From Escherichia phage EPFV3-03/2025, in sequence record PV435126.1: a stretch of DNA of 64,000 bases; one strand, written 5' to 3'. The notes beneath the pieces are model-generated. The model saw only the letters and a program-made list of their open reading frames with translations. It did no database searches and was not told the origin of the DNA. The position numbers were made by a program, and so were the translations under genes. Shown one piece after another: positions 38,964 to 44,569 of this stretch (position 1 is the stretch's first letter; every line of letters begins with the position of its first letter).

Positions 38964-39236
38964 GTGTCAAGCTGGATTAACCAAGAAGTCGAATCACGTT
39001 TTAATGCTATTTGGGATCTCATCGAAAAAGAGGACGGAACATCAAGCCCCTACCTTAATAATCTTGAATTCCATTTTGTGGAAGCGATGAACGCAGAACA
39101 TGATCACGAAGGCGGCGCGGATGAGTTCGCTAAAGGGTATGGCTTCACCAATGCCAACGAAATGATCGAGGCGGTTGTACTCCAGGCTGAGGAAGATTAT
39201 CAATTAAAAACACTTGAATTTTGCCGCCGTAAGTAA
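38964..39236 (+). CDS. hypothetical protein (90 aa)
   Basis: GTG start after AGAGAGG. Confidence 0.45.
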   Translation: MSSWINQEVESRFNAIWDLIEKEDGTSSPYLNNLEFHFVEAMNAEHDHEGGADEFAKGYGFTNANEMIEAVVLQAEEDYQLKTLEFCRRK

Positions 39237-39297
39237 TAAGATAATGACACGGGCCAAAAGGCCCACCAAACCAGAACCCCATAAAGAGGTAAACATC

Positions 39298-39561
39298 ATG
39301 AAACGTCTTGATCAGCTCAAACTAGTTCAGTACATGGCCTACAAAGTTCTTGAAGTCCAAAAAGGTAGCAAAAAAGAGGTTTGCGAGAAAGCATATAAGA
39401 TCTTTACCCGTAAAAAAGATGATTGGATGTTACGCCAGACCAAAAAGGCTGACATCTTGGGGTACCTGGAAGAAGAGATCCGGCTTGAAGAGCAAGAAGA
39501 GATCCGCCGCAGTGAGGCAGATTATCAGGCAGCTTGGGAAAGCTGGATGAGCAACAAATAA
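39298..39561 (+). CDS. hypothetical protein (87 aa)
   Basis: Start at ATG 39298 with leader aagaggtaaacatcATG. Confidence 0.5.
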   Translation: MKRLDQLKLVQYMAYKVLEVQKGSKKEVCEKAYKIFTRKKDDWMLRQTKKADILGYLEEEIRLEEQEEIRRSEADYQAAWESWMSNK

Positions 39562-39628
39562 TACAACAAGTTACGGTCAGGGGGGGCAATAAAGCCCCTT
39601 GATCACATAAAAATTATGCTATCCCTGG

Positions 39629-39657
39629 TTGACAGGGATCGGCAGTTTTGCTATATT
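39629..39657 (+). promoter_or_regulatory. sigma70-type promoter
   Basis: -35 TTGACA 39629-39634, 17-bp spacer, -10 TATATT 39652-39657. Confidence 0.55.
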
Positions 39658-39706
39658 CTTTTTTGAAGGGAAGTTGTAAGAAAATTAACTAAGAGGTAAA
39701 AACACC

Positions 39707-40126
39707 ATGAACATTAAATCTAATAATCCGGCATATAGCTTTGATAACGCTTTTTGTCACGGTCCGGCGGCGAAAGGATTCGAAATCGATGGTAAACTAA
39801 TTATTGTCAATGTTGACGGGGAAGAGGTTGCAGTATATCCGGTGGCAGACGTTAAAAGCCGTCTACAATGCCGCATGGATGTTACCGCCTATCAGCTTGA
39901 TCCGGTCCGCATAGTTGCCCTGGTCCTGGAAGAAGAAATTAAAGCAATGCACCACAGCAACAAGTTTATTGGTGACGCTCAAGATAATATGAAGGTATGC
40001 CGCCATAAAGTTAATGAAGTGCTTAAAGAATATGGCTTTAAAGATCTGATGATCAAACGTGAGGAAAAATTCCGCTACCGTAACGACCTGGCAAATCGGA
40101 TTTTTGAAATATACGAATCATTATAA
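39707..40126 (+). CDS. hypothetical protein (139 aa)
   Basis: Last gene of plus-strand block; followed by terminator. Confidence 0.55.
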   Translation: MNIKSNNPAYSFDNAFCHGPAAKGFEIDGKLIIVNVDGEEVAVYPVADVKSRLQCRMDVTAYQLDPVRIVALVLEEEIKAMHHSNKFIGDAQDNMKVCRHKVNEVLKEYGFKDLMIKREEKFRYRNDLANRIFEIYESL

Positions 40127-40144
40127 TTTTTTAACTGAATTATC

Positions 40145-40170
40145 AAGGGGCTTAGGCCCCTTTCTTTTTG
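40145..40170 (+). terminator. rho-independent terminator
   Basis: AAGGGG-cttagg-CCCCTT stem-loop followed by TCTTTTTG. Confidence 0.65.
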
Positions 40171-40779
40171 TCTGCTCTTCCCCATACCATAAACGGCCCT
40201 ACCTGACAAGTGGAATAATTGACGAGCCATCAATCCCGCACACTGTACAAATATACATGTAAAATAGCTATTGCATAACCTTTCATTGTGTGGTAGCGGT
40301 GCTATTTTTACCCGTTTTCTCTCCCAAAATTGCACGTAATGCAGCTATTGCACAAAATTTAACCTGATGCACATCTTCAGTATACTGTCAACAATTAAAA
40401 ATCTTTATAAGTCATACACTTACACAAACCAAAAAGCGTGTCCTACGTGAAAAATCGGGTGTAACTATAGCCGACAGATCTCAGAATCCACGTACAATCA
40501 CCATTCTATAGCCTGCAAAGTATTTATTCCAACCACAGAATAACGGAATAGTCAATACTTGTATAAAATAATTATTCGTGTAAACTGCATAACATAAATC
40601 TTCTCATGTGTCAACATTTTTCGTAAACAGTCCGAAATTGTCACGATAGGTTACTATAATCAGAGAAATCTTTAGTCGTCTAATGTTTACTGTACATAAC
40701 TATACTGACTGGAATCATTAGATGACTAAGAGAAAGATAAGAAATAATTAACAATGTAATTGTTTTATCTGCAACAATA

Positions 40780-41170
40780 AGGCAACTATGCAAACGAATG
40801 GCATGGCGCGACGGAGTCGCGACATAATATAAAAGCAGTAACCATCACCCCCGTGATAGTTTGTCTGCAATCTATTAATCAGATCATAGTTGCCTTGTAT
40901 TTAGTTAATCATGACATAACAAGCAGGGCAACTATAGATCTTCTAATAGTTGCCCTGCTTTTATATTATGTCATATATTATTAACTTGTCAATTGTCACC
41001 TTGCTAATTGTTTTCATGCAAACGAATGTCATGGCTTATCATCTCTGTGTAAACTGTCAATGTGTAAACAGTCTACGCAGGAACAATCTATACGTGAACA
41101 GTGAAACATGAAATAATAACAGTCGTTATTGTGTCGAAAGTGTCGTATTGTGTGACATTGTGTCAGACAA
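40780..41170. repeat. iteron/inverted-repeat cluster in non-coding region
   Basis: GGCAACTAT motif 4 times (40782, 40887 rc, 40927, 40946 rc) incl. perfect 15-bp inverted repeat 40921-40935/40946-40960; direct repeats tgcaaacgaatgNcatggc (40790, 41015), gtgtaaacNgtc x2, TTGTGTC x4. Confidence 0.7.
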
Positions 41171-42691
41171 GTTTTTCTCCTCTTTGTCAAGTGCTGCATG
41201 GAAAATTTACAATCTGGTATGGTAGCATTTTTGCGGCCCCGTTTACATGCATGAGTGTATGTATAATCCTTGTTGTGTGGGCGTTTAGACGTCTGGACGG
41301 TCAGAAGTCCGCAGGTTAATATCTAATCTATTGGTCGCTAACTATATCCACCACAAATAATAAGAAATACAATTGTTATATTCGTAAACAGTAACCCATG
41401 TTATCAATCCCTGTATGTATCGCCAGTGGTGCGCATAATGGGTATTATGTTAAATTGCCCGTAATGATAACGATTCTCACAATGATAAGTATTCTCATTC
41501 ATCCACACAAAATAGCTTGCAAATGTTGTGCCACTGTGTGAACGGCCTCGCCTATTAATTTGCCTCACTGCCCCGATATTTGAGAATTGTTATAAGAATG
41601 AGAAGTATTCCCATTCCGTCCGCCTGGCAGCACTCCAGTCGCTACCGGCTCCTGACAGGGTAGCACTCCTGTAGGACAAGCACAAAATCTGGGCATAACT
41701 GGACCTGTTCAGATATTTCTGGCTGACTCTTCAGGTCTGTGTGGGAAAAGCCAACCTCTCCGGCGGGGCAGGGGGGGTCTGCATGGCAGATTTCACCTGG
41801 AGCGAAACCCTTAAGGGTAAGATGGGGTGGTATTACAGGAAAAATTGCAGGTCAATTAAAAAATTTACGTGGTGTATGAAGCCCTCTTCAGGCAGGGCGT
41901 GTATTATGGGATGAAACCCTCTTCAGGTGATGATATTTGTGGGTGTGATATTTGCTGGAAAGCCAGATATGACGGGGCTCCCGGCGGGGATGGGGTAGTA
42001 CAGGCAGGGAAAATGTGGGGATGTGGTGTGGTAAATTGATCAGGCAGGTAGGATATGGAATATGTTACAAGTATGTTAAATATGGAGGTAGGATATTTGT
42101 AAGATTTGTGTGTAAAATCAAATACTTATGTGGTGTTGTGGTATTTTCTATAAATAATTCAAGTTTAATAGGTGATATTTGTCTCCATCTACTTTGTGTG
42201 GTAAACAGATTCTAATTGAATTGGTTTACAAGTGTATATAAAGTATACAAATTAAAGATATAAGAAACCCCCCTCCCCCCTTCGGCTACCATTCACCTTT
42301 TCCTCTGACTGGTACTTAAACACTTATTCAGACTCTTCAGGTTATCACCCATATATCATATGGCAGTGACTGGTGTCCTCCGGCCCCTCTTTCGTCACCC
42401 GTCCGCTTCGCCATGCTAATGCCATAGCTAACTGTTCGGTTGTTCACCCTGTTCACTCAGGTGTATCTCCATACCCCTTCAAACCGAAGAGAACAGAAAA
42501 CCCGAATTACTCGGTAAAAGAAAAGAGAAGAACTTAATTTTATCAGGATAGGCAAGAATGTCAAGGCATGACTGCTCACTAAACAAGCAAACAGTCATGT
42601 GTGGGAGGTAAGTGATTGTGGTGGTAGGAAATTTAGTTGAAAGATGTGTTATAGGTGCTTCCAGCACTTTAGCCTGGCAGCTAATTGTGTG

Positions 42692-42907
42692 TCAGTCCAG
42701 CGGTTCATCCTCTACTTCACTGAAATCAATGTTCATGGTCTCTTCCCAACCATCGATCTCAGCACAAGAGTGGAGTTCTTTAGGGTTTACTCCCAAAGCC
42801 TCAGCAACAGAGTCTATATTTAACACCTCTGGCAGGTATGATTCATCGAATTCAAGGTAAATCAGGCCACGAGTGTTGTCAGCTCCACCAAATATTTCTA
42901 TCTTCAT
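42692..42907 (-). CDS. hypothetical acidic protein (71 aa)
   Basis: Last ORF of minus-strand block. Confidence 0.4.
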   Translation of the reverse strand: MKIEIFGGADNTRGLIYLEFDESYLPEVLNIDSVAEALGVNPKELHSCAEIDGWEETMNIDFSEVEDEPLD

Positions 42908-43027
42908 AAAATCTCCTCTGGGAATGAGAGTGTGAACAGGATTATACGTTCCAATGCACTGGAATTTATATACGTTTGCCTCTTCAGGCCATGCTTTAGC
43001 ATGATAAACTTGTGTGGGCTCGGTGCT

Positions 43028-43363
43028 TCATAGTCTGCCACCTCTGAACTCTTCGTTCTCAGGCATGATAGAGAACCAGATGGCTATGATGTCCTCCCAC
43101 GTCAGGTCATCAGCCTCAGGGTCCACCTGGGACGGAGATAGAGAATCCTCAGAATTGAAGTTTTTCTCTGCGGTCGCTTCTTCAGATGTCTCTTTAGGTG
43201 CATGTGTGTTGGTCATGTTCCACCCGTGAGTATTCCGGCAACAGCCGCTATGGACGTAATGATCATCAGGATCACCACCAAAACCTCGGACAATGTTTTC
43301 ATTGCGTATTCCATATTCTTCAAACGATGTGAGGATACTATCACAGGAGCTGTAATGTGTCAA
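43028..43363 (-). CDS. hypothetical acidic protein (111 aa)
   Basis: ORF in co-oriented minus-strand array. Confidence 0.45.
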   Translation of the reverse strand: MTHYSSCDSILTSFEEYGIRNENIVRGFGGDPDDHYVHSGCCRNTHGWNMTNTHAPKETSEEATAEKNFNSEDSLSPSQVDPEADDLTWEDIIAIWFSIMPENEEFRGGRL

Positions 43364-43575
43364 CAGAAACGCCGCGAGGGTTGGTTAAAATCCGAGCGTA
43401 TGGTGATTTGGGTCAAAACGGACGTGCGTTCTCGCTACGCTCGAAATAGAGAGTTGTTTGTAAGCAGCTCTTAAACGCTCTGTAATGATATTAACTACCT
43501 AAGGTATGGAATCGTGCACCAGATAAAGAAAAGGACGCCACAGAGCGTCCTAGGTGCCTTAAATTTGATATTTTG

Positions 43576-43887
43576 CTATACCCATGAGGGCTTGTCTAGG
43601 TTGGAGTAGCTGAAGGGGGTCAAAAGGTGACTGTCAAAATCTTTCAAACTGTCCAAGTCTTTTTCCTCGTCCTGACACCATCTGTGCCTGCATTTATTGT
43701 TGTAGTGCATGGAATGCATAGCGTTCTGCAACTTAACAGGTACAAGTGATTCAGGAGTAGATAGAATTGTTGGGTATGCCAGGACTATCTCAAACAATGG
43801 AAACACATCGAAACTGAAGTCTATTTCTGCTGAGGTTGCTGGCATATAGGAGTATTTAGCTGTCGTTGTAGACATAATCCACCTCAC
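43576..43887 (-). CDS. hypothetical protein (103 aa)
   Basis: ORF in co-oriented array. Confidence 0.45.
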   Translation of the reverse strand: MRWIMSTTTAKYSYMPATSAEIDFSFDVFPLFEIVLAYPTILSTPESLVPVKLQNAMHSMHYNNKCRHRWCQDEEKDLDSLKDFDSHLLTPFSYSNLDKPSWV

Positions 43888-44210
43888 ACAGGCTTGATAA
43901 TACCTTCACCGAATAACTCTTCATATTTAATCTTATCAGGATCCCACTCCTGGATAATTTCGAAGACAATATCCAGCCCAGGGATAATCACTTCTCCGGT
44001 ATCAAGTCTGGCAAGAACAAAACCGGAAGGTTGAATGGTTTCCCAGTTGCGACGATTAGAATAGATAACTTCGAAAATATCGCCAACCGCAATCTGTTGA
44101 TCAAGGTGTTCAAGATTCTCTTTCATATAAACGCAGCGTATTTTCCGTGCAGGCCACAGGCCCCCTGCATCACGTTTATTTAGCTCTTTTACAGTAATCG
44201 GCATTAGCAT
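43884..44210 (-). CDS. hypothetical protein (108 aa)
   Basis: ORF with ATGA overlap with downstream gene. Confidence 0.45.
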   Translation of the reverse strand: MLMPITVKELNKRDAGGLWPARKIRCVYMKENLEHLDQQIAVGDIFEVIYSNRRNWETIQPSGFVLARLDTGEVIIPGLDIVFEIIQEWDPDKIKYEELFGEGIIKPV

Positions 44211-44263: not shown

Positions 44264-44569
44264 TTATTCTGCAGAGCGTTTGAACAGAATGTCTGCTTCA
44301 GACATGTGCTCAACCTCTTCTTCGATTTTAGCTCGACGTTTTTCAGCTTCGTAGCGGATATCGAATTCGGTAGCCACCAATGACTTGATAAACTTAGGAG
44401 AATACAGGTGATCCTGTTTCTCGACAAGAATAATATCCTTGATAGCGTCTTTCAGATCTTTAATCTGAAGCTGAAGTTCCACCAGCTCTTCAATTGTTTT
44501 ACGGAGGCGATCACGCTCTGCAGTGTCAGAAGGCAGAGAGGTGAACAGTTCAACTTTAGATTTAGCCAT
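44264..44569 (-). CDS. hypothetical protein (101 aa)
   Basis: ORF in co-oriented array. Confidence 0.45.
   Translation of the reverse strand: MAKSKVELFTSLPSDTAERDRLRKTIEELVELQLQIKDLKDAIKDIILVEKQDHLYSPKFIKSLVATEFDIRYEAEKRRAKIEEEVEHMSEADILFKRSAE

Follow-up and report, generated by a model that had tools for sequence, protein, structure and literature searches.

A gene-free gap in the genome of an rV5-like coliphage probably holds a short direct terminal repeat

Escherichia phage EPFV3-03/2025 (PV435126.1) is represented here by a stretch of 64,000 nucleotides, hereafter the window, which on sequence grounds is the genome of an rV5-like coliphage of the genus Vequintavirus. Positions 40171–42691, the region queried in this study, form a gene-free gap between convergent gene blocks. 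We consider it quite probable, from sequence comparison, that a Vequintavirus genome packaged with short direct terminal repeats has its concatemer junction and terminal region here. The ends of the virion DNA would be the equivalents of 41166 and 41624, with the same 459 bp at both ends; such ends have been shown in relatives and are assigned here by homology, so that the presence of one sequence at both ends of virion DNA appears established for close relatives, not for this molecule itself. A preliminary description of the region had proposed a packaging site or the physical terminus of a circularised assembly, among other functions, and this proposal is supported by the gapless mapping of the 459-bp ends of phages Gotham and HdK5 to 41166–41624. 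The identity of the terminal repeat is in itself already known, as it is orthologous to published Vequintavirus repeats.

A megablast search with the region matched 121 phage records, of which 97 cover at least 80% of the query at 86–96% identity; all 97 are rV5-like coliphages of the genus Vequintavirus. Several relatives' records split the query at its position 996. In Gotham, a 459-bp repeat_region is annotated at both ends of the record. The two end copies of Gotham are identical to each other, as are the two of HdK5, and positions 1–459 of both repeats align with 41166–41624 at 94% identity. In at least nine records the start or the end falls exactly on an edge of the repeat (EdH4, HdK5, YN3, Gotham, ECP2309, ECP2303, Pr121LW, bov11CS3 and bov25_3). 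When the 459 bp alone were used as query, EdH4, HdK5 and YN3 were found to carry a copy at position 1 and another elsewhere in the record, the two copies being at the record ends in EdH4 and YN3, and ECP2303, bov11CS3 and bov25_3 to begin or end precisely at the repeat edges. The segment measures 458–460 bp and lacks indels in approximately 117 records, whereas both arms around it are indel-rich. Terminal repeats of 458/459 bp have been reported for the genus (PMC6563267, PMC7471380), EdH4 and HdK5 having been described with "short terminal redundancies of 458 bp" (Korf et al., PMC6563267), and read-start pile-ups with roughly twofold coverage between fixed termini have been reported for both Gotham and the Mydovirus KPP-1. 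Conservation, intactness of reading frames and promoters were assessed in a MAFFT alignment of 18 genomes (the window and 17 relatives). The features discussed below are as follows, with the strand given where one applies.

40145–40162, plus strand: intrinsic terminator closing the plus-strand gene block (7-bp G+C-rich stem AAGGGGC/GCCCCTT, then a T run)
40171–40772: left-arm spacer, A+T-rich (35% G+C) and of moderate conservation (mean column conservation 0.84–0.95 in the 18 genomes)
40773–40974: block A, a near-invariant palindromic module with nested hairpins (invariant runs in the 18 genomes)
40821–40838: 5' arm of an 18-nt perfect inverted repeat, GACATAATATAAAAGCAG, partner of 40955–40972
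40955–40972: 3' arm of the same inverted repeat, CTGCTTTTATATTATGTC, partner of 40821–40838
41036–41165: left short-repeat arrays adjoining the terminal repeat, with GTGTAAAC(W)GTC/GTGAATAGT-type units and, at 41129–41164, (T)TGTGTC-type units
41166–41624: homologue of the 459-bp direct terminal repeat by alignment with Gotham and HdK5, single copy in a collapsed or circularised sequence
41184–41213, plus strand: just inside the left repeat edge, a motif in two parts, TTGTCAAG-N16-TTTACAA, conserved across genera
41463–41616: AATGATAA / TTCTCA(T) repeats inside the terminal repeat (tandem 18-mer at 41463–41497, inverted copies at 41581–41616)
41626–41672: right short-repeat array adjoining the terminal repeat, GGCAGCACTCCAGT / GGTAGCACTCCTGT
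41700–42140, plus strand: G-rich segment (G 144, C 60), with CTCTTCAGG at 41727, 41884 and 41919 and CCGGCGGGGNNGGGG at 41760 and 41981
42140–42264: A+T-rich stretch of 24% G+C, invariant over the 33 nt of 42140–42172, which contain TATAAATA
42265–42532, minus strand: body of block B, a candidate non-coding transcript of about 265 nt, near-invariant and downstream of the conserved promoter
42537–42564, minus strand: strong sigma-70 promoter TTGACA-16-TGaTAAAAT facing the terminal repeat (11/12 consensus bases plus TG)
42692–42907, minus strand: last gene of the minus-strand block and right border of the region, 71 amino acids (aa), phrog_12108, annotated in nearly all relatives

The repeat boundaries agree in position among at least nine records, and their edge motifs are common to Vequintavirus and Mydovirus. 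In KPP-1, a 514-bp repeat with twofold coverage received a T7-type call from PhageTerm (PMC9862379); this repeat lies within a gene-poor gap of 1.8 kb flanked by convergent blocks, and in Klebsiella phage DP the same 514 bp are annotated at the end of the record. The edge sequences are kept in both of these Mydovirus phages. With a slash marking the boundary, the left edge reads GTGTCA/GACAAG..TTGTCAAG-N16-TTTACAA in the window and TTGCTA/AACACA..TTGTCAAG-N16-TTTACAAAATAT in KPP-1, and the right edge reads TCCGTCCGCC/TGGCAGCAC in the window and TGTCCGTC/TAGCAC in KPP-1. The two-part motif is kept in Vequintavirus, Mydovirus and Seunavirus, with an inverted copy inside the right edge in Mydovirus and Seunavirus. 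A sigma-70 promoter at 41184 (+) looks strong in this genome but was rejected as a general feature, most Vequintaviruses reading TACAAG. Further inside, the AATGATAA/TTCTCA(T) repeats are annotated as a 34-bp repeat_region in Danish isolates, and copies of the AATGAGAAT type also occur in KPP-1 and Seunavirus genomes.

Both edges are adjoined by short repeats that vary in copy number. The left arrays gain and lose whole units between genomes, conservation falling to 0.42–0.57, and GTGTAAACTGTCAA of the left arm is also present in KPP-1 and 4MG. Four copies of TTGTGTC had been noted here previously; two are exact (41129 and 41158), the other two being degenerate GTGTC/GTGTG copies, and this 7-mer shows no window-wide enrichment. 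The right array consists of one to three copies, depending on genome, of the unit GGCAGCACTCCNGT, beginning at 41626, and in KPP-1 an analogous two-copy CACCATCTG(G/C)GGTG repeat ends at the edge of its own terminal repeat.

Both hyper-conserved blocks lie outside the repeat and, like the promoter on the right arm, were overlooked in the preliminary description. In a conservation-aware scan this promoter is the only strong one present in 18/18 genomes; it comprises TTGACA at 42564–42559, a 16-nt spacer and TGaTAAAAT reaching 42537, and its hexamers are invariant. Block B as a whole (42265–42600) is 97–99.7% identical in approximately 117 records, compared with 86–95% in the rest of the region, and from its sequence a minus-strand transcript is likely. 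The predicted RNA would start near 42532 and end in GAAGGGGGGAGGGGGGUUUCUU (C6TC6 at 42268–42280 on the plus strand), beyond which lie 124 bp of 24% G+C and then 440 nt that are C-rich and G-poor in the predicted RNA, as any leftward RNA of 41700–42140 would be. This C-rich stretch would suit Rho-dependent termination ahead of the repeat. The minus strand of block B folds at -83 kcal/mol (z = -1.8, compared with z = -0.3 for the plus strand); of nine paired columns that vary, six still pair, as wobble pairs, and only on the minus strand, and no pair has changed on both sides. The RNA could act in trans, could serve as primer or R-loop of a late origin, or could reflect T7-like transcription towards the junction. 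A reading frame or structured RNA filling the region had been named earlier as an outcome that would count against a terminus or origin: reading frames are absent, and a promoter-driven transcript within 42265–42532 is possible.

One explanation unrelated to end formation is that block B encodes a stable trans-acting non-coding RNA, for instance for host take-over or anti-defence, which would simply be accommodated in the gene-free terminal region and which we rate as possible and short of probable. The ubiquity of the promoter, the near-identity of the sequence downstream, the better fold of the minus strand and the restriction of wobble-compatible substitutions to it all speak for such an RNA, and functional non-coding RNAs have precedent in the subfamily and in the Vibrio cholerae phage ICP1. 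Against it stand the modest fold statistic and the lack of pairs changed on both sides, the absence of a clear terminator and of a homologue outside the genus, and a near-invariance that would equally fit a DNA site. Nor was a family match obtained: an Rfam scan of 39000–44000 returned no covariance-model match at E up to 1, and a scan of 42200–42620 gave chance-level matches only (E = 4.8).

Block A, on the left arm, contains four GGCAACTAT half-sites (40781+, 40886-, 40927+ and 40946-) within a span of at most 174 bp, and the 64-kb window has five copies where 0.44 are expected. The fifth exact copy, at 39911–39919 (-), lies inside a 139-aa open reading frame (ORF), 860 bp left of the cluster. 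These 9-nt half-sites are arranged as two inverted pairs and not as phased direct repeats, and the term iterons, under which they were first described, does not apply. Their count of four, including the inverted repeat at 40921–40935/40946–40960, was correct; this 15-nt inverted repeat is perfect in the present genome only, position 40926 being A in all 17 relatives and the match there 14/15. The longer 18-nt inverted repeat (40821–40838/40955–40972) had escaped notice. The predicted fold of block A as single-stranded DNA is strong (z = -8.1 for the plus strand, -10.0 for the minus strand). In magaca and LL12 the distance between half-sites 3 and 4 differs by 1 nt, a change more easily borne by a hairpin loop than by the site of a dimeric protein.

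The equivalent module can be folded in other genera too. In ten genomes of Mydovirus and Seunavirus, the left-arm module gives nested helices comprising 58 pairs; 99.3% of cells are paired, both sides having changed in eight pairs and a single side in none. These values were reached by 0/500 shuffles, and slid controls gave zero. The outer 20-bp helix of these genomes (GCGACACAATAACACGGGAG / CTCCCGTGTTATTGTGTCGC) is the homologue of the 18-nt inverted repeat of the window, and TGGCGCGA..GCGAC precedes it exactly as it does in the window. In a mini-alignment of the arms from eight genomes, all 18 core pairs are paired, nine having changed on both sides and none on one; six of these nine distinguish the window from the remaining genomes, and there is no wobble state. 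Such strict Watson-Crick upkeep suggests a requirement for pairing on both strands or at the level of DNA, for instance as a cruciform or as hairpins on either strand, while the same pattern is equally expected from mutational correction of a quasi-palindrome, and a role as RNA is also conceivable.

Several further observations concern the surroundings of block A. Its only nearby direct repeats are a pair of 20-mers, ATGCAAACGAATGKCATGGC (95% identical), at 40788–40807 and 41016–41035, which bracket the block, 228 bp apart, and are each kept in 18/18 genomes. Directly after the conserved helix (between 40974 and 40975), relatives carry hairpin-bearing insertions: a 33-nt insert, AACACCCGAAGGGGTGACCAAAGGTCACC.., in rV5, LL12, APCEc02, C15 and WM, and an insert of some 90 nt, CCAGATAAAGGGGATTCACAAAACCCC.., that PVP-SE1 (Seunavirus) and AV124 (Mydovirus) share in nearly identical form (about 1455–1545 of L024 and about 1120–1205 of L034). 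The insert of AV124 is flanked by duplicated GTGTTATTGTGTC, and these inserts look like a small mobile palindromic element. A strong-looking sigma-70 promoter at 40992 (-) was discarded as a general feature, as it is not conserved in relatives, and the left-arm spacer (40171–40772) contains no conserved strong promoter.

That block A, block B or both constitute a replication origin is compatible with the terminus reading, and we regard it as somewhat doubtful. In one version, RNA from the promoter at 42564 would prime DNA synthesis through a G6AG6 RNA-DNA hybrid beside the 24% G+C stretch; in another, block A, with the A+T-rich spacer beside it, would serve in origin binding or unwinding. The first draws on the order of promoter, near-invariant 265 nt ending in G6AG6 and 124 A+T-rich base pairs, and the second on the adjacency of spacer and block. 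The A+T-rich stretches themselves (40171–40772 at 35% G+C, 42141–42264 at 24%) are not specific to origins. There are ten DnaA-like sites with one mismatch in the 2.5 kb, where about three are expected from the rest of the window, and no perfect DnaA box in the region. The phage has a replisome of the T7/ICP1 type, and the late origin of ICP1 is near its packaging site (PMC9040626). Against an origin, the flanking genes are small and no initiator gene was identified beside the region, block B is without a homologue in KPP-1 by nhmmer, and the region lacks three or more phased direct repeats of approximately 17–22 bp, such as an iteron origin has. The origin of the preliminary description therefore loses its iterons, given the inverted half-sites, and survives as a doubtful function of the flanks. 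The GC-skew analysis suggested with it is of no help, as cumulative skew peaks here, in a manner resembling a terminus, and is confounded by gene orientation: the change in skew tracks the reversal of transcription, a connection already made by the authors of the rV5 genome (PMC3606486).

If the region is a terminal-repeat junction, packaging can be pictured by analogy with T7. Replication would yield head-to-tail concatemers with one copy of the repeat per junction, and terminase would recognise sequences both at the repeat and beside it. Staggered nicks, presumably between 41165 and 41166 on the top strand and between 41625 and 41624 on the bottom strand, would leave 459-nt 5' overhangs, and strand-displacement synthesis from the two 3' ends would then provide each daughter with a full copy. 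The edge positions in this scheme come from relatives' records, the polarity of the nicks and the fill-in from geometry and from knowledge of T7. The variable-copy arrays beside the cut sites may be recognition arrays; block A might act as folded DNA, a hairpin or cruciform, in end processing or in the start of replication; and the promoter at 42537–42564 would drive a non-coding RNA towards the junction, ending in the A+T-rich or C-rich stretch before the repeat. A more general conjecture, which we hold to be rather unlikely, is that the arms constitute a control region for short-repeat packagers without an RNA polymerase of their own, formed from the folded DNA of block A, a strictly Watson-Crick helix in three genera, together with the host-polymerase promoter of block B and its structured, G-rich RNA directed at the junction. 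If true, the two together would set the timing of, or provide the priming for, either the duplication of the repeat or a late round of replication starting at the junction. The large terminase gene should lie outside the window, by its position on the rV5 map.

Several points count against this scheme. Block A lies 190–390 bp and block B 640–975 bp from the cut sites, which is far for recognition by terminase. Compensated inverted repeats can arise by template-switch correction of quasi-palindromes, with no selection for the fold. PhageTerm has returned "circular permutated" for the bov isolates (PMC8407724) and headful packaging for BpE1AUH (PMC13211470). Finally, PVP-SE1 and phiTE have been described as circularly permuted (PMC3475682). 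The last two are also what favours headful packaging from a pac site in this region, with a permuted genome and 459-bp "repeats" that are artefacts of assembly or end calling. We think that explanation improbable: independent laboratories arrived at the same two boundaries to the base, coverage over the KPP-1 repeat is twofold, the boundary sequences are kept between genera, and repeat length is constant amid indel-rich flanks. Moreover, phiTE is a Certrevirus, and blastn finds no homologue of the region there.

The gap as such has been on record since 2013 with no function attached, when the rV5 paper drew a grey "non-coding" box between genes 163 and 164, where transcription units converge (PMC3606486); annotation under the region is absent in most relatives in GenBank. 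Its borders are as previously described, with the terminator at 40145–40162 closing the plus-strand block and the minus-strand block ending with the gene at 42692–42907, and terminators are annotated at the position equivalent to 40145–40162 in Gotham and HdK5. The earlier statement that the 2.5 kb hold no credible ORF is likewise upheld. Reading frames of at least 45 aa in 40171–42691 begin mostly with GTG or TTG and are of odd, Cys-rich composition; most are disrupted among the 17 aligned relatives, none of the in-region frames matches a PHROG family, and both flanking genes do. That the region carries unannotated small protein genes is therefore very improbable, even though some records annotate 1–16 hypothetical proteins there and the block B frames of 39 and 54 aa remain unbroken in 16 or 17/18 genomes, since the intact frames sit in near-invariant DNA and their intactness is uninformative. 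Host-derived sequence was rejected, a comparison with 5,426 E. coli genomes giving only chance matches of 46–48 nt. A tRNA/tmRNA scan found nothing, and there are no Chi sites within the region. A pseudo-ToxI type III antitoxin mimic as in phiTE, with tandem 34–45-nt repeats like those of an antitoxin RNA, was also rejected; the phiTE locus is a co-directional tRNA region near the terminase gene, not a convergent gap, and no Rfam match was found in the region.

The right arm contains additional motifs. GGCTGACWCTTCAGGTC and CTCCGG(G)CGGGG are kept in KPP-1, GAP31, 4MG and PVP-SE1. CTCTTCAGG occurs seven times in the window (0.7 expected); five copies fall within 41727–42988, all on the plus strand, four of them in the region and the fifth, in the same orientation, at 42980–42988 (+). 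This fifth copy is approximately 75 bp past the start of the gene at 42692–42907, where only short ORFs are listed, and on the minus strand it stands between weak -35-like and TATATA -10-like elements, an arrangement resembling the motif-embedding promoter of GAP31 and KPP-1. Repeats of gatatttg, ggtaggatat and gtgtggtaaa, reported in the preliminary description, form families of two copies each. The roughly 50 bp at 41777–41826 are found, among the 18 aligned genomes, only in this one, in WM and in one IMG/VR contig, the others having a deletion. TATAAATA matches the consensus of late promoters in T4 on the plus strand, with its back to the repeat and in antisense orientation relative to the minus-strand genes; it is not enriched, with three occurrences in the window and 3.1 expected. 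The "late" motif described for rV5, TggTAaAAtA, has TGGTAAA as its core, and the window contains 33 copies of this core compared with 11.5 expected. Their strand largely tracks gene orientation, with plus-strand copies in the right arm at 42029 and 42199, and the excess could be due to codon usage (GGT AAA).

The gene immediately left of the region (39707–40126, +) is polymorphic among relatives. The 139-aa ORF (phrog_12277) is found in the window, rV5, LL12, MaxBurger, nomine and Mangalyan, and is replaced by an 87-aa ORF annotated as "DNA translocase FtsK" in nomo, APCEc02, pangalan, JeffSchatz and WM; the non-coding region to its right is kept with either. To the right of the region, a 101-aa protein (44264–44569, -; phrog_639, "transcriptional regulator") is 99% identical across Vequintavirus and 40–60% identical in Mydovirus, Seunavirus, Certrevirus and some Aeromonas phages, and is a candidate binder of the conserved motifs. 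Its gene is 1.6 kb from the region here, whereas in KPP-1 some 36 kb separate it from the terminal repeat; it was rejected as a synteny anchor, not being syntenic in other genera. Some 18–19 records titled "Campylobacter phage ..." (MG0656xx, for example L016, MG065654.1; some UNVERIFIED) are Vequintavirus genomes, 87–90% identical to the coliphage region and classed by NCBI in Vequintavirus, and their host label is probably wrong or the result of contamination.

The papers on Gotham, EdH4 and HdK5 give the length of the repeat only and do not describe its flanks (PMC7471380, PMC6563267). In the open-access literature we found no description of the repeat mapped to the middle of the gap, of the variable arrays at its edges or of edge motifs shared across genera, nor of the compensated helix, the promoter with block B or the oriented CTCTTCAGG motif. 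Among approximately 120 public Vequintavirus records, most have been opened arbitrarily and leave the stretch blank, and in a few it has been filled by spurious small genes. With the true ends placed at 41166 and 41624, the genome would have its correct start and the largest gene-free gap of phages that are candidates for therapy would be explained, and fixed ends argue against generalised transduction through headful packaging. The flanking modules, defined to the base, are candidates for a packaging signal common to the whole subfamily, perhaps for a late origin as well, and would be useful for engineering and for packageable vectors. Current understanding is not overturned by these results; the core is known and nothing unusual among tailed phages, and the flanks have roles that are deduced.

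In the concatemers of T7 and T3, a short terminal repeat occurs once per junction, short imperfect repeat arrays lie just outside it on both sides, a promoter faces the junction and a nearby inverted repeat is implicated in duplication of the repeat. The present arrangement differs in that its non-coding arms, at about 1 kb each, are far longer than those of T7, and in that transcription of the genes on either side runs towards the ends instead of away from one of them. To our knowledge the phage described here, unlike T7 and T3, has no RNA polymerase of its own, and its promoter is accordingly of the sigma-70 type. ICP1 has the same type of replisome, with a Pol I-like polymerase and a gp4-type helicase-primase, and provides a precedent for an origin beside a packaging site and for conserved, abundant non-coding RNAs (PMC9040626), but it is described as a headful packager.

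Within the phages compared here, no Certrevirus record matched the region by blastn, and phiTE and CB7 of that genus are reported to be circularly permuted. Gotham, EdH4 and HdK5 are the closest parallels, with an orthologous repeat, the same non-coding arms and the same convergent blocks (PMC7471380, PMC6563267); the repeat is single and internal in the window, by contrast, because the sequence was opened elsewhere. The sequences of KPP-1, DP and PVP-SE1 cannot be aligned with the window by BLAST. In KPP-1 and DP the repeat has 514 rather than 459 bp, and nhmmer with blocks A and B gave no match to KPP-1, the weak matches obtained being to the repeat itself. The gap of KPP-1 is 70–77% identical to the gene-free gaps of Seunavirus, such as the 2.2-kb gap of PVP-SE1. 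KPP-1, DP and PVP-SE1 nevertheless resemble the window in their convergent blocks around a gap of 1.8–2.2 kb with the repeat in its middle, and KPP-1 also has a minus-strand promoter facing the repeat, albeit of different sequence. Common to the window and to Mydovirus and Seunavirus are, finally, the copies of CWCTTCAGG and the G-rich element CTCCGG(G)CGGGG in the right arm, and the homologous helix of 18–20 bp in the left.

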